Part shown: positions 13,831-50,350 of the stretch, one piece after another
Numbering within the stretch: position 1 is the stretch's first letter
Layout: the number at the start of each line of letters is the position of its first letter
IMG/VR virus record: IMGVR_UViG_3300046787_000377
Coordinates: 1 to 59,810 of that record
DNA: 59,810 nucleotides
Direction: 5' to 3' (one strand)
From: a virus
Taxonomy: Duplodnaviria; Caudoviricetes
Notes under the pieces: model-generated
Databases searched by the model: none
Told to the model about the DNA's origin: nothing
The model's input: only the letters and a program-made list of their open reading frames with translations
Position numbers and translations under genes: made by a program

Positions 13831-13877
13831 TTAAATAAAAAAATGTATATATTTATAGTGTATAGGAGAAACATACC

Positions 13878-14300
13878 ATGATAAAGTTAAAAAACATTTA
13901 TAAGGAAGAAGTAGAGGATTACCCATTCGACCAACCAGAACATAGTATTTACGATTATGATGAATTGGATGTTGAAGATGAAGATGAGGAAGATTTTTTA
14001 AATTTTCTTAAATCATACACAACTGAATTAAAAGAAGCAAATTGTAATTGTGTGTTCGAAGCAGAATATCAAGGAAGAGATGTGAAGTTGGGTAAACCAA
14101 TGCAAGGTGATGTTAAGAAATTTAAAGTTTATGTTAAAAACCCAAAGACCGGAAAAGTAGTTAAAGTAAACTTTGGTCAACCGGGAATGAACATTAAGAA
14201 AAATAACCCCGAAAGAAGAAAATCTTTTAGAGCAAGACATAATTGTGACCAACCAGGTCCAAGAACAAAAGCACGTTACTGGTCTTGCAGAAAATGGTAA
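13878..14300 (+). CDS. Putative head-associated protein (acidic N-terminus, basic C-terminal domain)
   Basis: C-terminal KVNFG..RRKSFRARHNC..ARYWSCRKW; AGGAG SD; between terminase and portal. Confidence 0.55.
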   Translation: MIKLKNIYKEEVEDYPFDQPEHSIYDYDELDVEDEDEEDFLNFLKSYTTELKEANCNCVFEAEYQGRDVKLGKPMQGDVKKFKVYVKNPKTGKVVKVNFGQPGMNIKKNNPERRKSFRARHNCDQPGPRTKARYWSCRKW

Positions 14301-14311
14301 AATAATAAAAT

Positions 14312-16042
14312 ATGGCAGATACTTCATTTTTTGGTAGGTTAAGAAAACTCTTTTCCCAAAAGGCTATCGTTACAGTTACGCCCGATGGTAAGAGAAAAGT
14401 TTTTGACTTCGATGAAAGACAAGAAACAAACCTATCATCATTAAGAGATAGATACACAAAGATTCAAAAATCTTTCTATGAACAAGCAGGTGGTGCACAA
14501 TCAATGGCATACCAACAAGTTCGTAGAGAAGTTTTTAGAGATTACGATGCTATGGACCAAGACCCGATTATTGCATCGGCTTTGGATATCTATGCAGATG
14601 AATCTACTTTGAAGAACGAATTTGGTGATATGTTAATCATCCGTTCTGATAATCCACGTGTTCAAGAATTATTAGAGAACTTATATTACGATATTTTAAA
14701 TATTGAATTTAGTTTATGGCCGTGGGTTCGTAATATGTGTAAGTATGGTGATTTTTTCTTAGGATTGGAAATCGCAGATGGTAAGGGTATCGTAAACGTA
14801 ACCCCATATTCACAATACAACACCGAAAGAATCGAAGGACACGACCCTACAAACCCACATATGGTAAAATTCAGAGTAATGGATGATGCTATTGGTAAAG
14901 TAGATTACGATAACTTTGAAATGGCTCACTTCCGTTTACTGTCAGATACTAACTGGTTACCATATGGTAAATCTATGGTAGAAAATGGTAGAAGATTGTG
15001 GAAACAATTATCTCTAATGGAAGATGCGATGTTAATCCATCGTATTATGAGAGCACCTGAAAAAAGAGTGTTTAAAATTGATATAGGTAATATCAATCCA
15101 ACTGAAGTTGATAATTACATGCAACGTATTATTAGCAAAATGAAAAAAGTTCCTTTTGTTAATAAAGAAACCGGTGATTATAACTTAAAATATAATATGC
15201 AAAACTTAACGGAAGATTTTTATCTACCGGTAAGAGGAGGTGACAGTGGAACTAACATTGAAAATCTAAGTGGTTTAGAATACACTGCAACCGAAGATAT
15301 TGAATACTTAAAAGGTAAATTATTTGCTGCATTAAAAATTCCAAAAGCATATTTGGGATATGAAGAAAATGTAAATGGTAAAGCAACCCTTGCAGCAGAA
15401 GATGTTCGTTTCGCACGAACCATCGAAAGAATCCAAAAAATGGTTACATCTGAATTATCAAGAATTGGTGTTATACACTTATTCGGTAATGGTATACAAG
15501 ATGCAGAAATGACTAATTTCGAAATTAGTTTAGTAAATCCATCTACAATCTACGAACAAGAAAAAGTAAACCTATGGTCTGAAAAGATTCGTTTGGCAAC
15601 TGATATGCAATCTTTAAAAATGCTATCTAAGGATTGGATATATGATAATATTTTCAAAATGTCTGAATCTGAACAAACTGAACAACGTGGTAAGATTGTA
15701 GAAGATATTAAAGATACATTCCGTTACAATTCAATTGAAAATGAAGGTAATGACCCTGCTAACCCACCAAAACAAACTGATGTTGAGGAAAGTTTAGAAA
15801 ACTTAAAGAGTGAACTTAAAGCAAATGTGGGAAGACCTCGTGAAGGTAACACCTATGGTAAAGATAAACATCCATATGGTAGAGACCCATTAGGTGATAA
15901 TGAGAGAACTGCAAAACGTAGTAGAACTTCAGAACACAAAGCCAAAAGTTTTATCAATGGTATTGCATCAAAACGTAAGTTTTTACATGAAATGAAAGAT
16001 ATGTTAGATGAAACTAACATTATCGATGATACGGAAAATTAA
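14312..16042 (+). CDS. Portal protein (T4 gp20-like)
   Basis: LMEDAMLIHRIMRAPEKRVFKIDIGN, EDFYLPVRGG, LFAALKIPKAYL. Confidence 0.95.
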   Translation: MADTSFFGRLRKLFSQKAIVTVTPDGKRKVFDFDERQETNLSSLRDRYTKIQKSFYEQAGGAQSMAYQQVRREVFRDYDAMDQDPIIASALDIYADESTLKNEFGDMLIIRSDNPRVQELLENLYYDILNIEFSLWPWVRNMCKYGDFFLGLEIADGKGIVNVTPYSQYNTERIEGHDPTNPHMVKFRVMDDAIGKVDYDNFEMAHFRLLSDTNWLPYGKSMVENGRRLWKQLSLMEDAMLIHRIMRAPEKRVFKIDIGNINPTEVDNYMQRIISKMKKVPFVNKETGDYNLKYNMQNLTEDFYLPVRGGDSGTNIENLSGLEYTATEDIEYLKGKLFAALKIPKAYLGYEENVNGKATLAAEDVRFARTIERIQKMVTSELSRIGVIHLFGNGIQDAEMTNFEISLVNPSTIYEQEKVNLWSEKIRLATDMQSLKMLSKDWIYDNIFKMSESEQTEQRGKIVEDIKDTFRYNSIENEGNDPANPPKQTDVEESLENLKSELKANVGRPREGNTYGKDKHPYGRDPLGDNERTAKRSRTSEHKAKSFINGIASKRKFLHEMKDMLDETNIIDDTEN

Positions 16043-16108
16043 TTTAACTTATAATTTTTAATATTTATATAGAGAAATTTTGAGTCTATCAAAATAAGGA
16101 TTAAAAAA

Positions 16109-16981
16109 ATGAAAAAAATAAAACATTCGAAATTCAAAAATACAGGGTTCTTATTTGAATTATTAACACGTCAAATAACGTTGGAAATATTAAACAACGC
16201 ACCTGAAGAAAAAGCCAAAAGAATAGTACAAGAATTCTTTGGTGGAAAAACTGAATTGGCTAAGGAATTACGCTTATTTAATTTGTTAATAAACGAAAAG
16301 TATAATTCAGAGAGTAAAGCAGAAAAGTATATTGATGCTATTATCGAAACTCGTACAAAATTAGATGAAAATAAACTTGCAAGAGAAAAATATAATCTTG
16401 TAAAGTCAATTAAAGAAAATTTCGAATTAGATTCATTCTTATCATCTCCAGTATCTAACTATAAAGTATTGGCATCAGTTCATAAGATATTTGAAGCAAA
16501 GATACAAGATGTAACTAATGTTAAAGATGTATTTGATGCTAAATTGACATTAATCGAACATATATCTACAACAACTCCATCTTTAAAACAAAAAGAAGAT
16601 AAGTTGATGGAAGATTATAGAAAACAAGAGAAAGATTTAAGATTACTTACATATAAAATTCTTGTTGAAACATTTAATAAGAAATATACCAACTTAAATG
16701 ATGACCAAAAGGATATTTTAAGAGAGTATATTAACAATGTAAACAACACTTCTAAATTTGGTGAATATTATGATTCTAAATTGAAGGTTGTTGTAACTGA
16801 ATTACACAAACTTTATTCCGAAGTTAATGATAAAATCACAAAGATTAAGTTGAAAGAAACTATTAATGTTATGAAACAACAGAAAATTGGTAAAAAAGTT
16901 ACCGATGAACAAGTTTCTGCATTGATGATGTCATATGAATTAATAAAGGAAATAAAAAATGTTAAAGAAAGAAAATCTTAA
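16109..16981 (+). CDS. Conserved head-region hypothetical protein
   Basis: Long helical ORF after portal, with late-promoter motif and SD. Confidence 0.6.
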   Translation: MKKIKHSKFKNTGFLFELLTRQITLEILNNAPEEKAKRIVQEFFGGKTELAKELRLFNLLINEKYNSESKAEKYIDAIIETRTKLDENKLAREKYNLVKSIKENFELDSFLSSPVSNYKVLASVHKIFEAKIQDVTNVKDVFDAKLTLIEHISTTTPSLKQKEDKLMEDYRKQEKDLRLLTYKILVETFNKKYTNLNDDQKDILREYINNVNNTSKFGEYYDSKLKVVVTELHKLYSEVNDKITKIKLKETINVMKQQKIGKKVTDEQVSALMMSYELIKEIKNVKERKS

Positions 16982-17816
16982 ATCGTATATAGACGAACTT
17001 ATTAAGGAAGTTGAAGAGGAGTTAGAAGAAGCCAATGTGACAGGTAATGTCGATGGATATCAGACTCCTTTTGCTTTTTCTGGTAAGAGTGCTTCTCAAA
17101 AACGAAAAAAAACAGCAACTCAATTGGGATACACGTTGGTAAATAACGATGTTAAAAATATTGATGAAGTAAACGAAGCAACAGCATCTGAAATCATAAA
17201 AGATTTAGATAAAGTACGAAACGATTTAATTAAAAAAGTAGATGTATTAATTGCTAAAAAGAAAAAACTTTATTCTAATGTTGATATTGAATCACCAATG
17301 AGTGCAGATGAGAAACAATTAGATAAAGATATACAATCTATATTTTCACAAATCCAACAAATAATTCAGCAAAAAAGAAAAATAAAAGAATCAGTAAACG
17401 AAGACAAAGTTTATATTGATTTTTTAAATAAGAAAAAAGGATTCAAGCAAGATAGAATTAAATTCAATTCATATGAAGAAGCTGTAAAGTGGGCAAGAAA
17501 AAATTTTGATAAGTTTGACCCTGATATGATTAAATACGAATCAGTAAACGAAGGTAAATCAAAAAGACCTGTGAATCGTTGGTTAGAATTGAAAAATGAT
17601 GAATCTATGCATGCTAATAAGAAGTTAGCAGTAGGATTGAAAGAATTAAAACATCAGTTAAGTGAGGTTGAAAAGTTTTTTCGTTGGTATAACCAAATTA
17701 AAACAATGAATGAGTTATCATCGGATGTTTTTTGGAAAAGAACTCACGGTCATATTTATAAGATAAAGGAAAGACTGATTAATATCGCAAAAACAATACA
17801 GGAGATAGAAAAATAA
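16959..17816 (+). CDS. Putative prohead core/internal protein with EVNE/ESVNE-delimited modules
   Basis: EVNE plus two ESVNE linkers; head module context. Confidence 0.55.
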   Translation: MLKKENLKSYIDELIKEVEEELEEANVTGNVDGYQTPFAFSGKSASQKRKKTATQLGYTLVNNDVKNIDEVNEATASEIIKDLDKVRNDLIKKVDVLIAKKKKLYSNVDIESPMSADEKQLDKDIQSIFSQIQQIIQQKRKIKESVNEDKVYIDFLNKKKGFKQDRIKFNSYEEAVKWARKNFDKFDPDMIKYESVNEGKSKRPVNRWLELKNDESMHANKKLAVGLKELKHQLSEVEKFFRWYNQIKTMNELSSDVFWKRTHGHIYKIKERLINIAKTIQEIEK

Positions 17817-18294: not shown

Positions 18295-18471
18295 ATGACT
18301 AAAAAAAGATTGTTAGAAATAATTGACGAAGAAATCCTTAAAGTAAAATGGGGGTTTGTAAACGAAGAAATTACTAGTGAGGATGAAAAACTTATTAGAG
18401 ATATTATTCGCAAAGAAGTTTCTGCAATATTTTTTGACTTATTTAAAAAACGAAACGTTTGGGGAGCATAA
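18295..18471 (+). CDS. Small head-region protein, 58 aa (not in ORF track)
   Basis: Manual translation MTKKRLLEIIDEEILKVKWGFVNEEITSEDEKLIRDIIRKEVSAIFFDLFKKRNVWGA; its stop overlaps the protease ATG (TAATG). Confidence 0.65.
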   Translation: MTKKRLLEIIDEEILKVKWGFVNEEITSEDEKLIRDIIRKEVSAIFFDLFKKRNVWGA

Positions 18472-19064
18472 TGAAAAATTTATTAATTGAGACTAATCTT
18501 TTTGAGGGTAGAATCAACGAAGATGCATCTGGTAGAACACTTGTTAAAGGTGTATTACAAAGAGCAGTAGCAGAAAATCAAAATGGTAGAGTATATCCAA
18601 GAGAAATTTTGATGCGTGAAGCAAAGAAATATGAAGTTCTTATCAAAGAGAGAAGAGCATTAGGGGAATTAGACCATCCAGATTCATCGGTAATCAATCT
18701 AAAGAACGTTTCTCATAACATTAGAGAAATATGGTGGGAAGGTGATGATTTATGCGGAACAGTAGAAATCTTACCAACACCATCAGGTAACATATTAAAA
18801 GAATTATTAAGAGCAGGAATCCTATTAGGTATTTCATCTCGAGGTATGGGTTCAGTATCACCAATGGGTGAGGGTAAAGTAAAAGTTGGCGATGACTTTG
18901 AATTGATTGGGTGGGATTTCGTATCTAACCCATCTACTCATGGTGCATTTATGACACCAATGAACGAATCCGTAAACAAACAATTACAAGAACAAGCGAT
19001 AGTATGTGGTGATTTTTGTAAGGCACAAGACCTTATGAGAGAAATCATTACTGAATTATCATAA
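18471..19064 (+). CDS. Prohead protease (T4 gp21-like)
   Basis: NQNGRVYP, ALGELDHP, GISSRGMGS, DFVSNPST; start moved to the ATG at 18471. Confidence 0.93.
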   Translation: MKNLLIETNLFEGRINEDASGRTLVKGVLQRAVAENQNGRVYPREILMREAKKYEVLIKERRALGELDHPDSSVINLKNVSHNIREIWWEGDDLCGTVEILPTPSGNILKELLRAGILLGISSRGMGSVSPMGEGKVKVGDDFELIGWDFVSNPSTHGAFMTPMNESVNKQLQEQAIVCGDFCKAQDLMREIITELS

Positions 19065-19076
19065 AGGAATAATAAA

Positions 19077-19517
19077 ATGGGATTTAGTATACAAGATTAC
19101 TTAAAGAACAATAAGATTGAATTGGGTAGTATTCAAAAAGAAGTTGGTGATACCCCATATAAGGGTGGTCATAACGATATTCGTAAGACTAACTACGATG
19201 TGAAGATAAAAGAAGATGGTAAATTAGATTTATATACACATAAAACTATAATGACAGAAGGTAAATCTTTGATTAAAGAAGCTTCTGAAATTAAATTTAA
19301 CGAATTAGATTCTACTAAACAAAAGCAAGTAAACGCATTTGTAAAATTTTTTGGTGGTAAAATCAATACAATTTGGGATGGTATACATGGAAATATTGTT
19401 GATATTAAAATGTCAGAAAAAAATTGGAGAATGGATACTCAAGATTTGAAAGATTTGATTTCATTAAAAATACGTTGGATAGAATTTGATAACCAAACGG
19501 TCTCAATAGGATTTTAA
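19077..19517 (+). CDS. Hypothetical head-region protein
   Basis: ORF with SD (AAGGA); LIKE-type site in the middle. Confidence 0.5.
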   Translation: MGFSIQDYLKNNKIELGSIQKEVGDTPYKGGHNDIRKTNYDVKIKEDGKLDLYTHKTIMTEGKSLIKEASEIKFNELDSTKQKQVNAFVKFFGGKINTIWDGIHGNIVDIKMSEKNWRMDTQDLKDLISLKIRWIEFDNQTVSIGF

Positions 19518-19535
19518 AATATAGGAATAATAAAG

Positions 19536-20765
19536 ATGATTAAATTACACAATTTACTTAATGAAGAAACTTTTACCGCTACTAACAAAGCAAGTGGTAA
19601 AACATCAGTATTTAAATCAAAAGATAGTAGAGATGCTGCAATTAAAGCAGGAACTCACTCTGAAAAAGAAGATAGTAAATCAGATAAATCTGTTGGTAGT
19701 TCTTCAAAGGTAAATATCTTTGATAAACCAACAAAATCAGAACCTAAATCGGCATCAACATCTACTCCATCTAAAATGGGTGTAGATTCGGTAGTATATA
19801 ATACGAGAACTAAAACAGTTGGTATTGTAAGAATGGCTGATGAAAGAGGTGAAACTAAAACTGATGCAGATGGTAATGTAAATACATCTGAATTAGAACC
19901 ATACAACCCAACCAAGTATCCACATCAAAAAGATGCTAAAGTTGCACCATCTACTCAAAAAGAAGTAGATAAGAGAGGTTTATGGAATCCATTTGCACAA
20001 GATAAAGAAACTTCTAAAGAAGAACCTACTCAAACTGTAGCAGAACCTAAAAAGAAAAGACCGGGCAACCCATCGGTAAATAAAGAAGCTAAAAAGTTAG
20101 CGGATAAGTTTGGTATTAATCCAAATAAGATGAGTAAAGAAGATTACATCACTAAGATGTATCAAGCAGCAGTTTCTGCATTAACTGATTCAAATTTCCA
20201 TAGTGAAGCAAGAGAATTAGTTGCAGCAATTGAAGGAAAACCTGAATGGGCTAAAAGACCGGTGTATCCATCTTTACAAGACCCCGACTTTAAAGAGAAA
20301 ATGAAAGCTATTCGTACTAATTCGGCTGATAGTTCGATTTATATGAATGCAAAAGATGAAGTTGATGAATATGGTACGGAAGTATCACAAGCATCAGGAT
20401 GGGATGGTGTTGATGCAGCTGATGGTATTGCATTTACATTAAGAATGAACGGATTCCACAAACAAGCCGATATGATTCAATCTGTATTTGATAATAAACC
20501 ATATATGAAGAATGAAGGTAGAATTTCATTAAGTAAAATGATGAATGAATCAGAAGCAGAAGAAATTGCTAGTTTAACTGGTTTAAGAACACAGGCTGTT
20601 AAAAAATTCATTGATGATAACAACATTGACGATAGAAAATTATTAGCATATCTTAAAATTAAAGGTCCAAAGACATTAAGTAATAGAATGGATATGTCAA
20701 CTGCAATTGTAGGTAAACCGAATAACAAATTTGCACAAGGAATTATCAAAGCATTTCAAAAATAA
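19536..20765 (+). CDS. Putative internal head protein (multi-module)
   Basis: MIKLHNLLNE leader; internal ISLSKMMNE resembles the leader of the next gene. Confidence 0.5.
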   Translation: MIKLHNLLNEETFTATNKASGKTSVFKSKDSRDAAIKAGTHSEKEDSKSDKSVGSSSKVNIFDKPTKSEPKSASTSTPSKMGVDSVVYNTRTKTVGIVRMADERGETKTDADGNVNTSELEPYNPTKYPHQKDAKVAPSTQKEVDKRGLWNPFAQDKETSKEEPTQTVAEPKKKRPGNPSVNKEAKKLADKFGINPNKMSKEDYITKMYQAAVSALTDSNFHSEARELVAAIEGKPEWAKRPVYPSLQDPDFKEKMKAIRTNSADSSIYMNAKDEVDEYGTEVSQASGWDGVDAADGIAFTLRMNGFHKQADMIQSVFDNKPYMKNEGRISLSKMMNESEAEEIASLTGLRTQAVKKFIDDNNIDDRKLLAYLKIKGPKTLSNRMDMSTAIVGKPNNKFAQGIIKAFQK

Positions 20766-20783
20766 ATAATAGTAGGAGAATAG

Positions 20784-21878
20784 ATGATAAGTTTATCAAA
20801 AATAGTTAAAGAAGGTGAAGAACCAAAGAAATTTTCTAATGAAGTAAAAAAACATTTTTTAGAAATCGTTTCTACATACAACAAGTATCAAGAAATGATG
20901 GATAGAAAATCGGATATTGCTGAAATTGCAGAAATTTTAGGTGGAATTACTGAAGCAGCTAGAGAATTAGCGATAAACGAATCAGATGATTGGTTCGATG
21001 CTCAAACTGTTAAAAGAAATATGAGTGAATTGGCTAAATTAGGTGGCCAATTTGATAAAGTAGCAATCGAAGCAAAAAACTTAGACCAAAGATTACATGG
21101 ATTATACGAAGATATGGGTCATATCCTATCTCGTTACTATAAAATTGGTGAAGTTAGTGAAGAAACGATGAAACAACGTTTGGGTATCAAAGAAGCATCT
21201 CCTTGTTGGGATGGATACAAACAAGTTGGAATGAAGACCAAAGATGGTAAAGAAGTTCCTAATTGTGTACCTGCAAATGAATCAATTAAAGAATCTACTG
21301 ATTGTGGATGTAATTCGGTAAACGAAGCATTCGTAAAAGGCAAAACTTATGGTGGAACTAAATGTGAAGGTGGATGTTATGTGGGTAAACAAGGTTTAAT
21401 GAAACTAATTAAAATTTCTAAAGATAATCCAGAAAATGTATTTATGTTTAGAGATGATAACTATTCAGGAATACAACCACATTTCATTAAGAATGGTGTA
21501 ATTGCAAAAGCAAATACAATTAATCCATCTTATGATTTAGAAAAAAGTAAAGTAAGAAATTTAAAAATCGGTAACGATGTTATTCTTGCAGTTAGATTAT
21601 TTGAATCAGTAAACGAAGCAGCATTTGGATATAAAGACTCATCTGCATCATACATTGATAAACATAAAGATGAATACAAAACAGCAGAAAAAATGAATAA
21701 AGGAAACGAACAATCGTTTTATGATTCATTATCTGCATTAGAAGAGAAATTAGGTCATCCTAAGTATATGATATTCTTATCAAATGCGTTAAGAGGATAC
21801 AAAGTTGATATGTATAAAGACCCAAAAATTAAAAATCAACAAGAAGCAGAAGAAGCATTGTTCCTTTTAAGCAAATAA
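20784..21878 (+). CDS. Putative internal head polyprotein
   Basis: MISLSKIVKE leader; ESIKE, NSVNE and ESVNE linkers; CWDGYKQVG..VPNCVP mini-module. Confidence 0.55.
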   Translation: MISLSKIVKEGEEPKKFSNEVKKHFLEIVSTYNKYQEMMDRKSDIAEIAEILGGITEAARELAINESDDWFDAQTVKRNMSELAKLGGQFDKVAIEAKNLDQRLHGLYEDMGHILSRYYKIGEVSEETMKQRLGIKEASPCWDGYKQVGMKTKDGKEVPNCVPANESIKESTDCGCNSVNEAFVKGKTYGGTKCEGGCYVGKQGLMKLIKISKDNPENVFMFRDDNYSGIQPHFIKNGVIAKANTINPSYDLEKSKVRNLKIGNDVILAVRLFESVNEAAFGYKDSSASYIDKHKDEYKTAEKMNKGNEQSFYDSLSALEEKLGHPKYMIFLSNALRGYKVDMYKDPKIKNQQEAEEALFLLSK

Positions 21879-21936
21879 TTTTTAAAAGACATACTTATTC
21901 TCAAATAGTTACATCAAAACAATTTAAATTAAGTTA

Positions 21937-22239
21937 ATGAGCGGATTATCAAGAGTTACAGTAGAAGTTCGTAATGGAGACATTGCAAAGGCTTTAAAGA
22001 AATTCAAAAAGAAGGTAAACGAGTCTGGACATCTTTTAGAATTAAGAGAAAGAAAAGAATACGTTAAACCTACAACCAAAAGAAGGTTGCAAAAACAAAA
22101 AGCTGTTAGAGAGGAACAAAAAAGAGTTGCTCTTATGAAAATAGCAGAAGGTGATAGAACAATACGTTTCTTCACTAAAAAAAGAAAGAAAAAGGGTAAA
22201 GACGAACAAAAACCCCAAAAAGATAAAAATTTTGAATAA
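21937..22239 (+). CDS. rpsU: Ribosomal protein bS21 with basic C-terminal extension
   Basis: VEVRNGDIAKALKKFKKKV..G.L.ELRERKEYVKPTTKRR matches the bS21 signature. Confidence 0.88.
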   Translation: MSGLSRVTVEVRNGDIAKALKKFKKKVNESGHLLELRERKEYVKPTTKRRLQKQKAVREEQKRVALMKIAEGDRTIRFFTKKRKKKGKDEQKPQKDKNFE

Positions 22240-22304
22240 AATTTTTATAAAAATGTAATAAATTTAATGTTTCTATAAACATTTATATATTTATTTTCAA
22301 ATAG

Positions 22305-22430
22305 TCCACCTCTATTGTGGATTTAACTCAATGTTGGTTAATGAATACCTACGATTATATGTAAGGTCACCGAACAACTAACCTAACAATTCTATTGAAA
22401 ATTCAACTCAATATTTTCAGAAAACGTAAA
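22305..22430 (+). promoter_or_regulatory. Candidate structured 5' leader of the scaffold/capsid operon
   Basis: Complementary stems TCCAC/GTGGA, TGTTGGTTA/TAACCTAACA, ACCTAC/GTAAGGT and TGAAAAT/ATTTTCA. Confidence 0.45.
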
Positions 22431-22443
22431 GGAAAGTAAACAA

Positions 22444-23532
22444 ATGGCAAACTCAAAATTGTTAAAAGATGCAATTGCTGATGCTAAAGCCGTACGTGAA
22501 ACTGCTATTGCTAACGCTAAAATCGCATTAGAAGAAGCTTTTACTCCAAGATTACAATCAATCTTATCTAAAAAACTTACCGCTGAAATGGAAGGTGAAG
22601 AAGAAGAAACTGATGTAAATGAAGAGTATGGTGCTGATGATGTAGATGCAAACGATTCAACAGAAATCGGAGCAGGCGAAGGACAAACAGGTAGTGGAAC
22701 TGATGGTGATGCACCACAAGGTATCGCAACTGATGCTCACACTGAATTAGGTGACACAGAAAAAGAAACAGCTGAACCAGGTAAAGAGGATGAAAACATG
22801 CCTCTTGCAGAAGGTGAAGAAGATGAAAACCAAGATGGTGTTATTGATGACCCAACGGGTGCAGTAACCGAAGAAGAAGACGAAGACGAATTAGATTTAG
22901 AATCAATCATCAGAGAATTAGAAGATGAATTGGGTGCTGAATCTGACGAAGTTTCTGAAGAAGATGAAATGGAAGCTCCAGCAGTTGAAGAAGAAGAAGA
23001 AGCTTCTCCAGCAGTTGAAGAAGAAGAAGAATCTCAAGAAGCTGAAGTATCGGAAGAAGACGAAATCGACTTGGAAGAAATCTTACGTGAAATGGGATAC
23101 GGAGATGATGCAGAAGAAAAAGTTGAAGAAAGTGAAGAAGAATCTGATAATGTAGCCGAAATGGAAGCAGAATTAGAAGAAGCTTACAAAGTAATCAAAT
23201 CTTTGAAATCTACAATCAACGAAGTAAACTTGTTAAACGCAAAGTTACTTTACACTAATAAATTATTCCGTTCTTATGATTTAACAAACGAACAAAAACA
23301 CAAAGTTGTTGAAACATTAGACAGAACTCAAAATGTTAGAGAAGTAAAATTAGTTTTCGCTACATTAGCTGAATCAATGAAAATTGGTGGAACTGCTAAG
23401 AAAGTAAAAACAAACAAAATAACTGAATCATTCGCATCTAAGAAAGTTGCTTCAACTGCACCAAAGGCTGCAATTATCAACGAATCAAACGATATGGCTG
23501 AAAGATTTAAAAAGTTAGCAAACATTAAATAA
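22444..23532 (+). CDS. Prohead scaffolding/core protein (gp22-like)
   Basis: Highly acidic coiled-coil protein immediately upstream of the capsid gene. Confidence 0.8.
   Translation: MANSKLLKDAIADAKAVRETAIANAKIALEEAFTPRLQSILSKKLTAEMEGEEEETDVNEEYGADDVDANDSTEIGAGEGQTGSGTDGDAPQGIATDAHTELGDTEKETAEPGKEDENMPLAEGEEDENQDGVIDDPTGAVTEEEDEDELDLESIIRELEDELGAESDEVSEEDEMEAPAVEEEEEASPAVEEEEESQEAEVSEEDEIDLEEILREMGYGDDAEEKVEESEEESDNVAEMEAELEEAYKVIKSLKSTINEVNLLNAKLLYTNKLFRSYDLTNEQKHKVVETLDRTQNVREVKLVFATLAESMKIGGTAKKVKTNKITESFASKKVASTAPKAAIINESNDMAERFKKLANIK
22976..23031 (+). repeat. Tandem duplication with 30-bp period in the scaffold gene (PAVEEEEE x2)
   Basis: ctccagcagttgaagaagaagaagaa at 22976 and 23006. 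Confidence 0.85.
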
Positions 23533-23566
23533 ACAAACAAAAAATTCTAAGGAGAGAAAAAATAAA

Positions 23567-25177
23567 ATGGCAAATTTTAATTTATCAAAACTTATGGAAG
23601 GCAAGAACCCACAGTCAGTAATGTTGGCTGAAACACGTCAATTACGTGGTAAATGGGAGAAAACTGGTCTTTTAGAAGGTTTAAAGGAGAGAGAATCTTC
23701 TCAAGTAGCAGTTCTTTTAGAGAACCAAGCTAAACAATTATTGGATGAAGCAACTGCAACAGGTACTTCTGCAGGTTCAGAAGAGTGGAGTGGTGTAGCT
23801 TTACCATTGGTAAGACGTATTTTTGGTGAAATCGCAGCGAAAGAATTCGTTTCAGTTCAACCAATGAACTTACCATCAGGTCTTATCTTCTATCTAGATT
23901 TCAAATACGGAACAGCAGTTCAAGGTTCTAAATTCAATGGTAAATCATTGTTTGGTGGTAACGGAACTTCTAACTTCGATGGTGATTTCGGTAGAACTAA
24001 AGAAGCTGTAAACGGTCTTTATGGTGAAGGAAGATATTCTTACACAATCAACGACCAATCAGTATCAGTATCAACTGGTAACCAAACTTATACAACAGCA
24101 TCATGGGCTGATGTAAATTATGATGCATCTTTATCTGCTTCAATCGCTGCAGGTCAAGTTGCTAAAATCGTAGTTGCAAAATCAAACATCAACTCAGCAG
24201 CTGATTTTGATGCAGTACGTTCATTCTACATCTCTGCATCAGGTTTCTCTGCAGCAGATACATTCTACCCATTGCATAGCCAAGTAGTATCTTCAAACGT
24301 AGAATTCTTTGCAAAAGTTGCTACAGTAGCTACTAAAACTGCATTGACAGTTAATTATTCTTTGGCACCAACTGATACAACTCGTGGTGATTTCGAAGAT
24401 GCTAACCCAACTGAACCAGCAACTGATTTAGGTATTCCAGAAGTAGATTTGGAATTACGTTCAGAGGCTATCGTTGCTAAGACTCGTAAGTTAAAGGCTG
24501 TGTGGACTCCAGAGTTGGCACAAGACTTAAACGCTTACCACTCAATTGATGCAGAAGCTGAATTAACTTCTATGTTATCTGAATACATCTCATTAGAGAT
24601 TGATTTAGAAATCTTAGATATGTTAAAAGCTAACGCTTTAACAACTGAGTACTGGTCAGCAACAATCGGTGAAGAATTCAATGGTTCAACTTGGACTGCA
24701 GGTTCTTCTTCATTGGCATACCAAAAGAACACATGGTTCCAGACTTTAGGAACTAAGATTAATAAGGTATCTAACAAGATTCACCAATTAACATTAAGAG
24801 GTGGTGCAAACTTTATCGTTGTATCTCCAGATGTTGCTACAATCTTAGAATCAATTCCTGGATTCACAGTAAACGCAGACAAAGATGCTACATCTTTCGC
24901 AGCAGGTGTTTCTCAAGTAGGTTCATTGGCTTCACGTTATACAGTTTACAAAAACCCTTATATGACTTCTAACGAAATCTTATTAGGATTCAAAGGTTCT
25001 AGTTTCTTAGAGACTGGTGCTGTATACGCTCCATATGTACCATTGATTATGACTCCATTAGTGTACGACCCAACTAACTTCACGCCAAGACGTGGTGTTA
25101 TGACTCGTTACGCTAAGAAGATGGTCCGCCCAGAATTCTACGGCAAGATTTACATCAAAGATTTAGCTTCAGTTTAA
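23567..25177 (+). CDS. Major capsid protein (T4 gp23-like)
   Basis: VSVQPMNLPSGLIFYL, KTRKLKAVWTPELAQDLNAYH, YAPYVPL, GVMTRYA. Confidence 0.97.
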   Translation: MANFNLSKLMEGKNPQSVMLAETRQLRGKWEKTGLLEGLKERESSQVAVLLENQAKQLLDEATATGTSAGSEEWSGVALPLVRRIFGEIAAKEFVSVQPMNLPSGLIFYLDFKYGTAVQGSKFNGKSLFGGNGTSNFDGDFGRTKEAVNGLYGEGRYSYTINDQSVSVSTGNQTYTTASWADVNYDASLSASIAAGQVAKIVVAKSNINSAADFDAVRSFYISASGFSAADTFYPLHSQVVSSNVEFFAKVATVATKTALTVNYSLAPTDTTRGDFEDANPTEPATDLGIPEVDLELRSEAIVAKTRKLKAVWTPELAQDLNAYHSIDAEAELTSMLSEYISLEIDLEILDMLKANALTTEYWSATIGEEFNGSTWTAGSSSLAYQKNTWFQTLGTKINKVSNKIHQLTLRGGANFIVVSPDVATILESIPGFTVNADKDATSFAAGVSQVGSLASRYTVYKNPYMTSNEILLGFKGSSFLETGAVYAPYVPLIMTPLVYDPTNFTPRRGVMTRYAKKMVRPEFYGKIYIKDLASV

Positions 25178-25211
25178 TCTTAATGTAATCGAACTAACGA
25201 TTCAATAATAG

Positions 25212-25240
25212 AAAAGGGAAACTTCGGTTTCCCTTTTTTT
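25212..25240 (+). terminator. Intrinsic terminator with C(UUCG)G tetraloop
   Basis: aaaagggaaac-ttcg-gtttccc-ttttttt after the capsid gene. Confidence 0.9.
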
Positions 25241-25284
25241 ATGCATGATGATATTTATACTAAAATAATACGAAATATTATATT

Positions 25285-25737
25285 ATGTACATAGAAGAAA
25301 TAGCTTGGCAACATTACCAAAATCTACCACATATTGCTAGATTACCATTAAATGAACAAATACGAATGTATAATATGTATTTAATGGAAGTGACAGAAAC
25401 TAGAATAGCTTATTTACATCATGAGATGGCTAATCCACAAAGTTTAGGTGGTGGGAACGATGTAGTTGTAGAAGAAAGTGATTTACCTTCCGGATGTATT
25501 GAATTTGTAAACAACACATCTGATGGAACTAGTTGCACATTTTGGATTGAAACATCTGCCCCAACTAATTACACAATAACATGGGGTGATGGTGAAACAT
25601 CTACCGGTGAAGTAAATGGTGTAGATAGACTTGAAGTAAATTATAGTTATGCAGATAGTTTTACGGAATATACCGCTAGAATATGTTTCGATGATATAAG
25701 TTTAGTAACTTATTTAGAATTCAACGGAGACGATTAA
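25285..25737 (+). CDS. Protein with PKD/Ig-like C-terminal domain (possible decoration protein)
   Basis: YTITWGDGETS PKD-type motif; late-promoter motif at 25251. Confidence 0.5.
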   Translation: MYIEEIAWQHYQNLPHIARLPLNEQIRMYNMYLMEVTETRIAYLHHEMANPQSLGGGNDVVVEESDLPSGCIEFVNNTSDGTSCTFWIETSAPTNYTITWGDGETSTGEVNGVDRLEVNYSYADSFTEYTARICFDDISLVTYLEFNGDD

Positions 25738-25749
25738 AAATAAAATATT

Positions 25750-26607
25750 ATGTCAGCAACAGTAACTTCATTTACAGGTTTACAAAACCTAACAAATATA
25801 CAACAATTTAAAGCAGATTACAATAGTTTAACATCTATTGATTTATCAGGAATGTCATCACTTACTCTTGTAGATATAAGTGATAACGATATACCTGATA
25901 GTTCTACCAGTAGTTTAACATCTGTTAATTTAAGTGGATGTACAACATTAGAACAACTTTATATTGATGATAGTGATTTTTCAGCAGGACTACCTGATTT
26001 ATCAGACTGTACATCTTTGAAATATATAGATGCTGACCAATCTAATTTAGTAGGTTCAATTGATTTATCTAATTTAACTACATTAGAAGGTTTTGATTTT
26101 AATGGTAATTTAGGATTAACCGAAGTGATTATATCACAAACACAACCATTGGGTGAAAATGGAAATAGTATATCATTGGGTAATTGTGCTTTAACTCAAA
26201 CCGCAGTAGATAATATACTTGTAGCATTAGCTAGTGGAAGTATTTCAAGTGGAGATATTGATGTTGATAATGATAGTGGTGGAACTAATGCAGCTCCTAG
26301 TCAAATAGGAAGAGATTCACTTTTTATTCTTGACTCGAGAGGCTGGGGTATTAGTGTCGCAGATGGAAACCACACTATGTTGACAGTATCATATGATTTA
26401 CTCGAAGCTAATATATGTGCCGCTAGTAATACTGATTACGTTTACATCACATCCGGTTCAACATTAGAAGTTGGTAACATATTATATCGAAATTCAGATG
26501 CATATCTACCCGCAAACGATGGTTGGTGGAGACTTGATGGTGATGGTTCAATTAAATTTGAAGTAAGTGGTAGTGGTGAAATAATATCCGTTGCACCTTG
26601 TGTATAA
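25750..26607 (+). CDS. Leucine-rich repeat protein
   Basis: Repeats LTSIDLSGMSSL, LTSVNLSGCTTL, LPDLSDCTSL, IDLSNLTTL. Confidence 0.75.
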   Translation: MSATVTSFTGLQNLTNIQQFKADYNSLTSIDLSGMSSLTLVDISDNDIPDSSTSSLTSVNLSGCTTLEQLYIDDSDFSAGLPDLSDCTSLKYIDADQSNLVGSIDLSNLTTLEGFDFNGNLGLTEVIISQTQPLGENGNSISLGNCALTQTAVDNILVALASGSISSGDIDVDNDSGGTNAAPSQIGRDSLFILDSRGWGISVADGNHTMLTVSYDLLEANICAASNTDYVYITSGSTLEVGNILYRNSDAYLPANDGWWRLDGDGSIKFEVSGSGEIISVAPCV

Positions 26608-26627
26608 AAAATAAATTAAAATTAATT

Positions 26628-26653
26628 AAGGGATGCAAATCATCCCTTTTTTT
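26628..26653 (+). terminator. Intrinsic terminator
   Basis: aagggatg-caaat-catccc followed by a T tract. Confidence 0.85.
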
Positions 26654-26694
26654 ATGTCCATAACTAGTTGATTATCAATAGCCAAAAATAATTG

Positions 26695-26753
26695 AAAAAA
26701 AAGTGATAAAATATTTGGAAAATTGGTAAAAAATGTGTAGTTTAGCTATGTAA
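26695..26753 (+). promoter_or_regulatory. Putative Bacteroidota-type (host sigma) early promoter 1
   Basis: TTTG at 26714 with TAGTTTAG/TAGCTATG downstream; repeated at 27317-27375. Confidence 0.5.
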
Positions 26754-26784
26754 GATTAAGAGATAAACAATTAAAACATAAAAT

Positions 26785-27015
26785 ATGAAAATTAGAGAAT
26801 TTTATTTAGAAACCTATCCAACTGATGATTTGGGATTAGAACTTAATGAAACCCCAACCTTTTCTGGTTTATTAAATCAATTGATTGTTGGTGGTGATGT
26901 TTATAACTACATCGGTGTTGGTGATAGTATCATTAGAGAACGATTGTTTGAACGATTGGCTGAGGAATTAGAAGTTAGTTATGATTATGTTTATAATTTG
27001 TGGTTAAACGCTTAA
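26785..27015 (+). CDS. Small hypothetical protein (early island)
   Basis: 76-aa ORF, A-rich leader without SD. Confidence 0.65.
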   Translation: MKIREFYLETYPTDDLGLELNETPTFSGLLNQLIVGGDVYNYIGVGDSIIRERLFERLAEELEVSYDYVYNLWLNA

Positions 27016-27027
27016 AATATAAAAGAT

Positions 27028-27318
27028 ATGAAAACGCAATTTGAAATTTGGTTAGATGGAGTTAATAAGGAATTTGAAGGTAAAGTGTATAGTTGGACAC
27101 CCTTAACTGCTAAAAAAGGTTCTAAATTTATGAAAATCCAACATACAAATCACGTTTGGGGATTTGTTTCGATGTATGATGGTGAGTTTCAAGGTATTCC
27201 AATCAAAAAAGGTGATTTAATGAAACCAGCAAGTTGGAGAGCTCCCGCTAAACATAGTAGAGGAAATATATTTGATGGAACTGCCAAATATAAATGGACA
27301 GGTCCAGAATATTTGTAA
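27028..27318 (+). CDS. Small phage protein (early island)
   Basis: KGDLMKPASWRAPAKHSRGNIF motif, recalled from small phage proteins. Confidence 0.65.
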   Translation: MKTQFEIWLDGVNKEFEGKVYSWTPLTAKKGSKFMKIQHTNHVWGFVSMYDGEFQGIPIKKGDLMKPASWRAPAKHSRGNIFDGTAKYKWTGPEYL

Positions 27319-27375
27319 AAAAAAGTGGTAAAAAATTTGGAAATATCAAATAAATTACCGATATTAGCTTTGTAA
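27317..27375 (+). promoter_or_regulatory. Putative Bacteroidota-type early promoter 2
   Basis: TTTG at 27336 and TAGCTTTG (TAnnTTTG consensus) at 27365. Confidence 0.55.
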
Positions 27376-27406
27376 TAAGAAATTAAACATTTAAAACATA
27401 AAAGAC

Positions 27407-27673
27407 ATGAATTATTCAGAATTATCAAAATTATCAGTAGAAGAATTAAGAAACATCAACCAAATGGTTATTGAGTTGATTAAATCAAAACGTACTATTG
27501 AATCCTTAGAAAAGAAAATGGGATTGCAAGTAGGTATGAAAGTGACAGTAAATCACCCTAAGTTAATGGGTAGAGAGTTGGAGGTTACTAAAATTAACCG
27601 AACAAAAGCGAATCTAAGAGTAATCGGTGGGTTCGCATCATACAATGTTCCGGTTTCGATGATTGTGTATTAG
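27407..27673 (+). CDS. Small protein with SH3/KOW-like C-terminus (early island)
   Basis: LQVGMKVTV..EVTKINRTKA..YNVPVSMI. Confidence 0.6.
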   Translation: MNYSELSKLSVEELRNINQMVIELIKSKRTIESLEKKMGLQVGMKVTVNHPKLMGRELEVTKINRTKANLRVIGGFASYNVPVSMIVY

Positions 27674-27704
27674 GTTTAGTTGTTTTTCATATATTTTTTA
27701 GTTT

Positions 27705-27728
27705 AGGGAGAGAAATCTCCCTTTTTTT
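27705..27728 (+). terminator. Intrinsic terminator with GAAA loop
   Basis: agggaga-gaaa-tctccc followed by a T tract. Confidence 0.85.
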
Positions 27729-39907: not shown

Positions 39908-39950
39908 AAAATATATATTTATTATAAGTTAAATAATTAAGGAAAAAGAG

Positions 39951-43645: not shown

Positions 43646-44641
43646 ATGTATGATGTATATTATACAACTGGTGGTGGACCTTGGGTCAATGCCGGTTCTG
43701 ATATATGGGTAAATCTTTGGATGGAGTTAGTTACTCCTAAATTAGATGTTAAACCTATTCTTTTAATTCATCGTAATAAACCAACCGGACATGAAGATTA
43801 CCAATTTCCAATAGAAACGTATTGGCATGGGGATGATATTCAAAAATTTGAAGATTTATGTAATGGTGCACGTAGAATTAACATTTTACATGGACATTAT
43901 ACTCCAATGAAACCCATAGTTGATAATAAAGATAAAATACATTCAAATATACTACATAATTCAGTAGACCATATTTTAAAATCACAAATATTAAGTGATG
44001 TACCGATTGGGTGGCATCCATATTTAAGTTCTGATTGGGAATCCGATGTAATTAATTGGTCTAAAACCAATATTTGGGTTGGATTATATAAGATATTACA
44101 TGAAAATACAAATATACCTAATTTTTACGAATTTAAATTAGATTTACCACTTTCAACTTCAAATAGAATAGGATTTGCTGCTAGAAGTGAGGGAAGAAAA
44201 AACCCACATTATTTAGATGGATTACCATCATATGTTTTTACAAATTCGGTAGAATTTAATTTACTTTGGAAAAATGGTGTAAAGATAGATTTATCAAAAT
44301 CTAAGATATATCATTATAATTCAGAATTTAAAGATAAATTTTATAATATGGATTGGGGAATCTCACATTCTGCGTTTACATCCGAACCATTTGGGTATTC
44401 CATATTTGAAGCAGTAGATAGAGGTAAACTACCCATAATACACTCAAATTGGTGTAAAGATTTTGAGTATCCATATCGTGCATCATCTAAAAAGGAATTT
44501 AGTGATATTTATAGTGAGATTACTTTACAATCACACGAAACGAAATTATTTTGGTTTAACAAAATAAAAACGTTTATGAAACGAAATTTTACTGATAAAG
44601 ATTATTGGATAGAATCTTTATTGGATATTTATAACATATAG
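43646..44641 (+). CDS. Glycosyltransferase (GT-B, GT4-like)
   Basis: N-terminal TGGG; RSEGRKN; EPFGYSIFEA (ExFG..xE). Confidence 0.7.
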   Translation: MYDVYYTTGGGPWVNAGSDIWVNLWMELVTPKLDVKPILLIHRNKPTGHEDYQFPIETYWHGDDIQKFEDLCNGARRINILHGHYTPMKPIVDNKDKIHSNILHNSVDHILKSQILSDVPIGWHPYLSSDWESDVINWSKTNIWVGLYKILHENTNIPNFYEFKLDLPLSTSNRIGFAARSEGRKNPHYLDGLPSYVFTNSVEFNLLWKNGVKIDLSKSKIYHYNSEFKDKFYNMDWGISHSAFTSEPFGYSIFEAVDRGKLPIIHSNWCKDFEYPYRASSKKEFSDIYSEITLQSHETKLFWFNKIKTFMKRNFTDKDYWIESLLDIYNI

Positions 44642-44648
44642 GAGAAAT

Positions 44649-46275: not shown

Positions 46276-46371
46276 TAACATCGTTACACATATCAAAAAA
46301 TAATATTTTAGAAAAAGTAATTTATACTTATATGTGTATCATTACACAAACTTTAATTAGGAGTAAATAAA

Positions 46372-48684: not shown

Positions 48685-48740
48685 ACAATTAAAAAAAAGA
48701 GAAACATTATATTTATTAGTATAATAGGAGAAAAATAAAA

Positions 48741-49253: not shown

Positions 49254-49281
49254 AAAGGAGATAGTAATATCTCCTTTTTTT
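49254..49281 (+). terminator. Intrinsic terminator with GTAA loop
   Basis: aaaggagata-gtaa-tatctcc followed by a T tract. Confidence 0.85.
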
Positions 49282-49335
49282 ATAACTTTTTTTAATTTAT
49301 ATATTTATATACAAATAACAAAATAAAGGTTAATT

Positions 49336-50088
49336 ATGTCACAATATGATTTCGCAACCGAAATAGTTGCTCTACCATCGGAAGGTAAGTGTTATCCAGA
49401 GAGTAATCCACTTTCATCTGGACAAATCGAATTAAAGTATATGACTGCAAGAGAAGAAGAAATTCTTTCAACACAAAGTTTAATTAAAAAGGGTGTTGTA
49501 TTGGATAAATTGTTCGAAGCAATTATAGTAGATAAAAAAATAAATCCAGATGATATTCTTTTAGGTGATAAAAATGCTATTATGTTAGCAACTCGTATTT
49601 TAGGTTATGGGCCTGAATATAAAGTAGAAGTTGTTTTAGATAATGGTGATAAAGAAGAAGTTGTAGTTGATTTAGGTAAAGTTCAAACAAAAGAAATTGA
49701 TTTTACTAAATTATCAAAAGAAAATCGTTACACTTTTAAAACATCAACTGGTAATGAAATAGTATTTAAATTACTAACTCATGGTGATGAGAAAAAAATT
49801 GATATGGATGTTAAAGCAATGCAACGTCTAAGTAAAGATGGTGGCAGTGAATTAACAACTAGATATCGTTACATGATTCTATCAATTGATGGTAAGGAAG
49901 ATACTAAAAGTATTACCGATTTTATTAATAACCGATTCCTTGCAAGAGATACTAAAGCTTTTAGAGAACATTTGAAAGAATTACAACCTGACATCAAAAT
50001 GGAATTTGATTTCACCAACCCAGAGACGGGAGAAACGGAGGTACGCCCAATTCCTATGGGTGTAGGGTTTTTTTGGCCTACCGAATAA
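49336..50088 (+). CDS. Baseplate hub assembly / tail chaperone (T4 gp26-like)
   Basis: LPSEG..MTAREEEIL; ends FFWP; between tube and tape measure. Confidence 0.75.
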   Translation: MSQYDFATEIVALPSEGKCYPESNPLSSGQIELKYMTAREEEILSTQSLIKKGVVLDKLFEAIIVDKKINPDDILLGDKNAIMLATRILGYGPEYKVEVVLDNGDKEEVVVDLGKVQTKEIDFTKLSKENRYTFKTSTGNEIVFKLLTHGDEKKIDMDVKAMQRLSKDGGSELTTRYRYMILSIDGKEDTKSITDFINNRFLARDTKAFREHLKELQPDIKMEFDFTNPETGETEVRPIPMGVGFFWPTE

Positions 50089-50299
50089 CTATGGGGTTTA
50101 CCTACATAAACAAATTTTTGAATTATGTTATTATGGAAATGGGTTTACACAAATGGATGTATATCGTTTACCAGTTCATCTTAGAAATTTCTACTACAAA
50201 CAGTTGGTTGATGCTAAGAAAAAAGAACAAGATGATATGAAAAAAACATCAAAACCCACAAATAATAGTAACGGACCTAATATAAGAGTGAGGAAATAA
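50075..50299 (+). CDS. gp51-like chaperone domain, probably expressed by frameshift from the upstream ORF (not in ORF track)
   Basis: +1 frame is open from the T7 run: GLPNNYGVYLHKQIFELCYYGNGFTQMDVYRLPVHLRNFYYKQL...; first ATG only at 50153. Confidence 0.6.
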   Translation, partial: GLPNNYGVYLHKQIFELCYYGNGFTQMDVYRLPVHLRNFYYKQLVDAKKKEQDDMKKTSKPTNNSNGPNIRVRK

Positions 50300-50314
50300 T
50301 TCCTCACTTTTTTT
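50287..50314 (+). terminator. Intrinsic terminator
   Basis: agtgaggaa-ataa-ttcctcact followed by a T tract. Confidence 0.85.
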
Positions 50315-50350
50315 ATGCTCTATATTTATAGTAGTATAATTGGAGACGAT

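Follow-up and report, generated by a model that had tools for sequence, protein, structure and literature searches.

A phage bS21 without the Bacteroidia Tyr54 signature, encoded among virion genes that carry Shine-Dalgarno motifs

Virion genes and their Shine-Dalgarno motifs

The window analysed here is the entire 59,810-base IMG/VR virus record IMGVR_UViG_3300046787_000377 (Duplodnaviria; Caudoviricetes; CheckV completeness 30%), and our subject is the occurrence in it of a gene for ribosomal protein bS21 among virion genes, many of which are preceded by motifs of the Shine-Dalgarno (SD) type. All credible genes lie on the + strand, to which the coordinates below refer, and GC content is ~31%. 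PHROG assignments cover 50 of the 53 open reading frames (ORFs; those at 5771–11524, 50073–50240 and 58815–59588 are left out) and identify TerL (12244), portal (14312), prohead protease (18459/18471), ribosomal protein S21 (21937), major capsid protein (MCP; 23567), a head-tail adaptor-like protein (28240), tail fibre/baseplate proteins (35579 and 39951), tail sheath (46372), tail tube (48741), a baseplate hub-like protein (49336), a tape-measure-like protein (50620) and a baseplate wedge (55625). On these assignments the window covers the late region of a T4-like myovirus, with its virion genes, after ~13 kb of auxiliary genes; it most likely represents ~30% of a roughly 200-kb genome of this kind, the likeliest host being a member of the Bacteroidota, class Bacteroidia.

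We find an AGGA/GGAG-type SD, with a spacer of 4–12 nucleotides (nt), before 22 of 52 genes, against a background of ~3%. AGGA occurs at −18 to −5 before 20 of 53 ORF starts versus 2.08 ± 1.37 at random positions (maximum 8 in 2000 draws), which excludes chance as the source of the motifs; internal in-frame ATGs have it in 7 of 270 cases (2.6%), and a further 1279 ATGs in 3.2%. Where AGGA lies within 20 nt of a start, it begins nowhere but at −17 to −9, and G frequency peaks at 45–50% at −12 to −10 in SD genes and is at most 20% throughout the SD-less genes. The purine motif goes with start codons rather than promoters, since it precedes operon-internal genes inside upstream coding DNA (16959, 17816 and 29950) and since its spacing to ATG is steady, at 4–12 nt, while its distance from the promoter-like motif TATTTAT described below varies from 6 to ~90 nt; a reading of AGGA as a promoter element is excluded on the same grounds. 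Complementarity to the CCUCC core, spacing and enrichment are all those of an SD, and pairing with 16S rRNA is predicted, at −4 to −8.6 with a 9-nt anti-SD.

The sequence-only reading of this DNA had placed AGGA(G) upstream of 15 starts, and each of these is borne out, 4–12 nt upstream of ATG. AGGAG precedes gene 13878 (13864–13868, spacer 9; kept in 6 of 7 relatives), gene 20784 (20774–20778, spacer 5), gene 44649 (44640–44644, spacer 4), the tail sheath gene 46372 (46359–46363, spacer 8) and the tail tube gene 48741 (48726–48730, spacer 10), and AAGGAG precedes the MCP gene (23549–23554, spacer 12), where it is found in 17 of 17 close relatives, and the adaptor-like gene 28240 (28226–28231, spacer 8). 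AAAGGA stands before genes 19077 (19063–19068, spacer 8), 22444 (22428–22433, spacer 10), 27769 (phrog_858; 27753–27758, spacer 10) and 32676 (32662–32667, spacer 8), AAGGA before gene 16109 (16096–16100, spacer 8) and the tail-fibre gene 39951 (39939–39943, spacer 7), and AGGA before gene 19536 (19523–19526, spacer 9) and the tail-fibre/baseplate gene 35579 (35564–35567, spacer 11). Seven further SD genes are 16959 (AAAGGA, 16945–16950, spacer 8) and 17816 (AGGAG, 17800–17804, spacer 11), both with the motif within the upstream coding region, the prohead protease gene (GGAG, 18463–18466, spacer 4), 29396 (AGGA, 29385–29388, spacer 7), 29950 (AGGAG, 29934–29938, spacer 11), 53154 (GGAG, 53143–53146, spacer 7) and 58397 (AGGAG, 58382–58386, spacer 10). 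The longest ORF of the protease begins at TTG 18459; the alignment in all relatives starts at ATG 18471, four codons on, which is preceded by a conserved GGGGAGC.

The SDs fall on 21 of 38 genes of the virion module versus 1 of 14 elsewhere (Fisher p = 0.0017), and the SD-bearing set includes abundant virion proteins, namely MCP, sheath, tube, adaptor, fibres and head-module proteins. A strict division between late and early genes, as the sequence-only reading had it, does not survive, given that TerL, portal, the tape-measure-like gene and several baseplate genes have no SD, as is also true of seven genes immediately behind TATTTAT; what stands is the division between the virion module and the rest. 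Leaders that are A-rich and SD-less precede bS21, the three genes of a small island (26785, 27028 and 27407), as had been described, and all nine genes before 13.8 kb, a block (155–13830) that holds two epimerases, a 1917-residue ORF, TerL and genes of unknown function.

A phage bS21 with arginine at the Tyr54 site

The bS21 gene (21937–22239, 100 amino acids) lies in the head module between genes 20784 and 22444, 1.3 kb upstream of the MCP gene. Its identity, like its SD-less leader, had been read from the sequence correctly: the product is a true PF01165 member (56.9 bits versus a cut-off of 27, model positions 1–53 of 55), which also matches phrog_21469 (3.8e-9) and 24 PDB bS21 sequences at E ≤ 0.01 (best chains ~1e-6), and the sequence is 85–99% identical in several contigs, C-terminal tail included. 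According to Jha et al. (PMC7797042), Tyr54 of bS21 is a signature of the phylum and stacks on A1534 at the turn of the 16S tail towards bS18/bS6, and the C-terminal part of Bacteroidetes bS21 is unusually non-basic. The window protein does not have the Bacteroidia-type signature of Tyr54 followed by Ile55. From the KP motif onward KAVRE in the window aligns without gaps to KAIYV in the Bacteroidia-type PDB chain 9i5v_9, and residues 4–54 of the Flavobacterium johnsoniae chain 7jil_z align with residues 9–58 of the window protein; on these alignments Arg58-Glu59 (codons at 22108–22113) replace Tyr54-Ile55. The 19 residues that follow Arg58 contain no aromatic. Residues 44–100 hold 22 K+R versus 8 D+E, a net charge of +14 (+10 to +18 across the window clade), so that the tail is basic, in contrast to the published description of the non-basic Bacteroidia tail. 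That Arg58 occupies the Tyr54 site goes beyond the sequence-only reading, and the residue is the one whose Y54A change is reported to raise SD translation (PMC9976891).

Contigs 90–97% like window 19000–28500 are present in four freshwater metatranscriptome runs, and in two runs a contig bridges bS21 and the late gene 22444; contig depths and uncovered parts of this stretch carry no weight here in ranking genes. The bridging agrees with expression of bS21 alongside the late genes, although such contigs prove no single transcript and DNA carry-over is possible. No SD precedes bS21 in the window (21912–21936) or in its nearest kin. In loci L007–L010, L012, L014, L018, L021 and L022, whose bS21 is ~60% identical, just 1 nt separates AAAGGAGA or TTAGGAGA from the bS21 ATG, too near for ordinary SD use; such a site might mediate negative feedback after release of the anti-SD. 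The 204-nt gap between bS21 and gene 22444 (22240–22443) contains TATTTAT-like repeats and a small hairpin, CCACCTCTATTGTGG, with no Rfam family, and a stretch upstream of bS21, ACTTATTCTCAAATAGTTAC, resembles ATTTATTTTCAAATAGTCCAC within that gap. A profile search of genome contigs with the bS21 alignment returned no relative, the pattern being too phage-specific.

The motif TATTTAT(A) looks like a late promoter. A copy lies at 13850–13856, and further copies start at 5740, 11542, 16062, 25252, 28202, 32568, 35545, 39243, 39916, 45963, 48710, 49302 and 58788, so placed that TATTTAT stands 16–100 nt before many genes. On the + strand TATTTATA occurs 19 times, including 12 times within the 2.8 kb of DNA between genes, and on the − strand 3 times; its density is 4.24 per kb in intergenic versus 0.12 per kb in coding sequence. 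The T4 late promoter, which controls late genes, is TATAAATA; both elements are short, AT-rich and placed before virion genes, TATTTATA being strand-specific and intergenic in the window and lying 16–40 nt ahead of many virion genes, and the two differ at two positions. TATTTAT also precedes virion genes of the cultured Flavobacterium phage vB_FspM_immuto (hereafter immuto). Gene 13878, the first with an SD, comes immediately after this motif; its product (13878–14300, phrog_7595) is a small protein with an acidic N-terminal half and a conserved C-terminal part that is basic and contains Cys.

The island (26608–27768) consists of the small genes 26785, 27028 and 27407, with conserved SD-less leaders of TTAAAACATAAAAGA-type, promoter-like regions of their own and flanking terminator hairpins. 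The island promoters have a 25-nt spacing in the window, and in relatives the SD-less leader, of TAAAACATAAAAGA-type, is retained. In two complete relatives introduced below, G005 (156.6–157.4 kb) and G007 (39.1–39.7 kb), the island homologues lie >60 kb from virion genes and follow host-type promoters of the form TTG-N20-TATATTTG. Given these distant homologues behind such promoters, and the terminator hairpins that flank the island in the window, it looks like a relocated early or moron cassette; the same promoters lend support to the earlier suggestion that the island is read by host polymerase.

Elsewhere in the window, two adjacent paralogous nucleotide-sugar epimerases (963–1928 and 1932–2924, both phrog_540) stand at the head of the SD-less auxiliary block. 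The 1917-residue ORF (5771–11524) is preceded by TATTTAT and has no SD; relatives are 74–77% identical to it over ~400 residues, and immuto 49%. A tRNA search finds no tRNA gene in the window, and no Rfam family reaches its gathering score. At nucleotide level, 50,697 GenBank phages give a single match, to the immuto MCP gene (78% over 1.4 kb); the two MCPs share 53% protein identity, and homologues of 13 window genes are found at the immuto locus (L001). The window thus shares head-module genes and the late motif with Immutovirus-like T4-type myoviruses, as distant kin of another genus.

Shine-Dalgarno use and host signals in relatives

Relatives come from searches of IMG/VR with alignments of bS21 and of the MCP, which gave 80 loci each; ORFs in every genome compared were called by one identical if crude method (longest ATG ORF, greedy, without overlaps), and the bS21 screen of loci was made on stop-to-stop frames. 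Close relatives keep the SD at orthologous genes despite a diverged surrounding leader: it is mostly retained at 13878, 17816, 20784, 28240, 29396, 29950 and the protease gene, and relatives lengthen it to AAGGAG or AAAGGAG. A 91-kb relative, G001, encodes a bS21 that is 85% identical; SDs precede 13 of its 16 head-module ORFs as well as its baseplate wedge and fibre genes. Its SD-less genes include those for a helicase, ThyX, an endonuclease, SbcCD and endolysins, with no SD in ~27 ORFs around helicase, ThyX and endonuclease and none in ~22 ORFs of a sugar-metabolism block.

The same dichotomy is seen when virion-module homologues are compared with all other ORFs in bS21-encoding relatives: SDs precede 11/14 versus 12/73 in G001 (Fisher p = 1e-5), and, among complete genomes, 10/27 versus 10/246 in G003 (237 kb, p = 2e-6), 10/26 versus 17/276 in G005 (271 kb, p = 1e-5) and 8/26 versus 21/231 in G007 (253 kb, p = 0.004). 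In immuto, which has no bS21, the corresponding values are 1/9 and 5/111 over the 91 of 160 kb examined, which is not significant. Cultured Flavobacteriia phages without a match to the S21 hidden Markov model have SDs at background frequency, with 6/120 ORFs in immuto, 6/106 in the Cellulophaga phage phi14:2 and 2/56 in the Flavobacterium phage 11b.

Clades taken from an MCP tree were scored per ORF for a strong SD (AGGAG, GGAGG or GAGGT), and heavy SD use is nearly confined to bS21 carriers, with one exception, locus L152. The window clade, with bS21 in all 14 assessable loci and 3 short loci unknown, scores 62/277, L010/L012 (bS21 present) 10/29 and a basal clade, with bS21 in most loci, 45/158. 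Low scores are found for sister loci without bS21 near the MCP gene (0/65), for the bS21-less clades A (4/115) and B (3/178), which have none in the sequenced part, and for immuto (0/41). They are also found where bS21 is present: 8/143 in the short-R clade (7 Arg, 1 His), 0/47 in L048/L080 and 2/49 in L116–119, both Arg-type, and 1/14 in L115, which is Tyr-type. Loci with an aromatic (Tyr/His) bS21 are SD-poor, at 0.04–0.14 of ORFs in 5 of 6 unique loci, a figure confounded by host and lineage, and most loci in IMG/VR with a non-aromatic bS21 are SD-rich, with medians of 0.37–0.44 of ORFs. In L186, which has an aromatic bS21, the protease and TerL genes lie beside bS21.

The host is probably a member of the Bacteroidota, as judged from host-type promoters (TTTGG-N-TAnnTTTG) in these relatives rather than from the window itself. 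Intergenic copies of TTTG-N19-21-TAnnTTTG on the gene strand number 3 in G001 (0.04 expected) and 17 in G003 (0.10 expected). At 120 intergenic TTTGG sites in G001, G003, G005 and G007 the downstream logo reads CG-TAtATTTG, the eighth base being G in 54 of 62 sites; this TAnnTTTG logo fits the Bacteroidota −7 box and not the sigma-70 −10 hexamer. An early promoter family, TTTGG-N5-TCA-N-CG-TAtATTTG, has 17, 38 and 13 intergenic TAnnTTTG copies in G003 (133–236 kb), G005 and G007, respectively, and could label Bacteroidota phages in metagenomes.

A proposed late role for bS21 and its rivals

The explanation that we favour, at somewhat less than even confidence, is that late in infection a Tyr-less, basic-tailed phage bS21 exposes the anti-SD and thereby gives an advantage to virion mRNAs with an SD, whose SDs would then be working enhancers. 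Early and auxiliary genes, with A-rich SD-less leaders, would be of the type read by SD-blind host ribosomes; bS21 would be made from its own SD-less mRNA, apparently along with the late genes, and would replace host bS21 on 30S subunits. The phage protein would no longer keep the 16S 3′ tail in the bS21/bS18/bS6 pocket, leaving the anti-SD free, and the altered ribosomes would start more efficiently on virion mRNAs with an SD, at some loss for host and early phage mRNAs that have none. The sequence-only reading had cast this as a translational switch to late genes. The SD dichotomy on which it rested is real and conserved, but late-gene timing already appears to be set by the late-promoter-like motif, so that the SDs would seem to raise the output of abundant virion proteins rather than act as the primary switch; timing would come from TATTTATA, with the SD/bS21 layer adding yield and selectivity. 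A fuller version, in which a Tyr54-less, basic-tailed bS21 turns SD-blind Bacteroidia ribosomes into SD-reading ones and opens a private late translation channel at the cost of SD-less host and early messages, we put forward still more tentatively.

Several reports bear on the proposed steps. In F. johnsoniae, Y54A is reported to increase GFP output 3-fold for rpsU'-gfp and by 70% for an AGGAGGU reporter (McNutt et al. 2023, PMC9976891), with 3-fold more protein in vitro and a change in the KA of the complex with SD-less mRNA from 19 to 6.1; Bacteroidia ribosomes are described as SD-blind by default, and rpsU as the one strong-SD gene of F. johnsoniae (Naeem et al. 2026, PMC13000453). The bS21-lacking ribosomes and rpsU autoregulation of this species resemble what we propose in that loss of Tyr54 or of C-terminal contacts is described to free the anti-SD and shift preference to SD mRNAs (PMC9976891, PMC13000453), but there a host circuit governs one gene with an exceptionally long SD, whereas here a phage variant would act on ~20 virion genes with SDs of 4–6 nt. 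Closer in gene order are the freshwater Bacteroidetes phages of Chen et al. 2022 (PMC9723584), in which bS21 likewise sits within a block of genes for TerL, portal, protease and MCP, its expression goes along with that of late structural genes and the predicted host belongs to the Bacteroidota, and for which those authors also propose that phage bS21 substitutes into host ribosomes and favours phage mRNAs. In their phages, however, bS21 lies on the opposite strand, and an aromatic occupies position 54 in all 61 phage bS21 proteins reported (Tyr in 54 of them), whereas the window bS21 is co-oriented with all its neighbours and combines Arg58 with SD-bearing virion genes. Another T4-like myovirus, the Pelagibacter phage HTVC008M, encodes a bS21 that is reported to enter E. 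coli ribosomes in vivo (Mizuno et al. 2019, cited in PMC9976891); anti-SD occlusion is not known in its host, and tblastn at E 1e-3 found no bS21 similarity, in a search that also missed the bS21 of the cultured phage Mel-JY01. In Francisella tularensis, bS21 paralogues are described to steer virulence-gene translation, so that swapping a bS21 variant alters mRNA preference (PMC9578407), although these are cellular paralogues, not a phage protein, and anti-SD occlusion is uninvolved.

A number of observations weigh against the proposal. The presence of bS21, Arg type included, is insufficient for heavy SD use, as the short-R clade, L048/L080 and L116–119 make clear, and the Arg-type relatives G003, G005, G007 and the short-R clade use SDs far less. 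G005, with a bS21 60% identical and a similar basic tail, has SDs at 27 of 302 ORFs, among them the tube, sheath and protease genes, and none before its MCP gene; its bS21 gene is 150 kb from the head module. Conversely, at least AGGA precedes the MCP gene in 19 fragments of the MCP lineage whose sequenced part contains no bS21, though this part amounts to 4–34% of the genome and, as G005 and G007 show, more than 100 kb can separate bS21 from the MCP gene. An independent-pairs test of bS21 presence versus SD use on the MCP tree yields 4 contrasts and is not significant, just one of the related complete genomes is without bS21, and the comparative pattern as a whole is graded, not all-or-none. 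Published results also point the other way: with the weak-SD mRNA m291, Y54A and deltaC ribosomes are reported to have made fewer complexes than wild type (PMC9976891), and Chen et al. 2022 argue the opposite for their phages, with the aromatic kept so that the anti-SD stays stacked (PMC9723584). The phage SDs, of 4–6 nt and −4 to −8.6, compare with predictions below −13 kcal/mol for responsive rpsU-type SDs, by methods that differ. Finally, we infer both the entry of this bS21 into ribosomes and the release of the anti-SD, and the host is deduced from relatives.

One alternative, which we consider unlikely, holds that the SDs are functional but are read by host bS21-free ribosomes, a sub-population that may expand as host gene expression breaks down, or once some other phage factor has stripped off host bS21; the phage bS21 would instead serve ribosome capture, stability or mRNA preference via its N-terminal helix. 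F. johnsoniae is reported to contain bS21-free ribosomes naturally, which favour strong-SD mRNA, and McNutt et al. speculate on phage products that promote bS21 exchange (PMC9976891). The two traits are also separable, in that Arg-type bS21 clades occur with weak SD use and SD-bearing fragments occur without bS21 in the sequenced part. Against this, the lineage genomes at least 30% complete that have SD-enriched virion genes (the window, G001, G003, G005 and G007) all encode bS21, the bS21-less immuto has no SD enrichment, and the exact loss of Tyr54-Ile55 would be a coincidence.

It is quite unlikely, in our estimate, that the host ribosomes are simply SD-competent, as in a non-Bacteroidia host (for example Pelagibacterales or a cyanobacterium) or an atypical lineage, with SD strength tuning expression, strong for abundant virion proteins and absent for low-level genes, and with the non-Tyr bS21 mirroring the host type. 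The SD genes are indeed those of high-copy virion proteins, non-aromatic bS21 loci are mostly SD-rich, and two taxonomic labels conflict with the Bacteroidota host that the sequence-only reading assumed. The closest cultured MCP relative by protein (55%) is labelled Microcystis phage Mel-JY01 (L184). This phage has an annotated RpsU of 75 residues (record 22183–22410), which has no Tyr at the site and is encoded between the protease and the MCP; 21 of 36 coding sequences follow a GGAG-type SD. Since this RpsU is in the same position as the window bS21, the failure of tblastn with the window protein to find a match among the 50,697 GenBank phages (E 1e-3) is a sensitivity miss. The second label comes from a metagenome-assembled genome titled Candidatus Pelagibacterales, in which a 23-kb contig (C6 of G036; L293/L296–L300) is syntenic with window 584–7300 and carries an epimerase 83% identical to that of window gene 1932, plus neighbouring window homologues. 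In the window itself, moreover, TTTG-N19-21-TAnnTTTG is at chance (3 versus 2.48 expected, none intergenic); immuto, as a control, has 0 in 91 kb, so that absence of the pattern is uninformative. An SD-competent host nevertheless fits poorly with the Bacteroidota-type promoters of the relatives, in which the terminal G of TAnnTTTG is conserved, with non-virion genes that are at pure background (10/246 in G003 and none in ~49 ORFs of two large blocks in G001), and with the late promoter motif and head genes common to the window and a cultured Flavobacterium phage. The Microcystis phage differs in having SDs also before non-structural genes, and the 23-kb contig, in a 0.9-Mb low-GC bin, is most simply a mis-binned phage contig, though it may be a host hint.

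That the purine motif is instead a non-SD signal of late mRNA, such as a translational activator or repressor site, an element for RNase processing or mRNA stability, or a piece of the late transcription start region, we regard as very improbable. Such a signal would be compatible with ribosomes that are SD-blind by default and with the short late leaders, in which the motif lies 6–11 nt after TATTTAT at 13878, 35579 and 48741. The motif, however, complements the CCUCC core and keeps to 4–12 nt from ATG while its promoter distance varies, it also stands before promoter-less internal genes, and longer forms, AAGGAG and AAAGGAG, occur in relatives.

Phage-encoded bS21 is the commonest viral ribosomal protein, and its function is only guessed at; Bacteroidia, for their part, hide a perfect anti-SD that so far serves, to our knowledge, one gene. 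The window joins both questions in offering a natural "Y54-minus" bS21, ~20 SD leaders and SD-less internal controls that fit the existing F. johnsoniae reporter, PURE and cryo-electron microscopy systems. The theme itself is known, as a preference for phage mRNAs conferred by phage bS21 has been proposed in general terms in print (among the sources, the huge-phage preprint 10.1101/572362). What appears new is a Tyr-less bS21 (Arg58-Glu59) with a basic tail alongside virion-only SDs; this pairing does not occur in the parts of the published reports drawn on here, whose supplementary alignments could hold Tyr-less sequences. Were the proposal false, conserved virion-only SDs in an SD-blind host would still want explanation. 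If true, the ~20 virion mRNAs would carry the only SDs in the cell besides that of rpsU, so that one protein would provide both a late switch and host shut-off, and the window would represent a clear case of a virus that re-specifies the mRNA selectivity of the host ribosome, which would explain the presence of SDs in some Bacteroidota phages.

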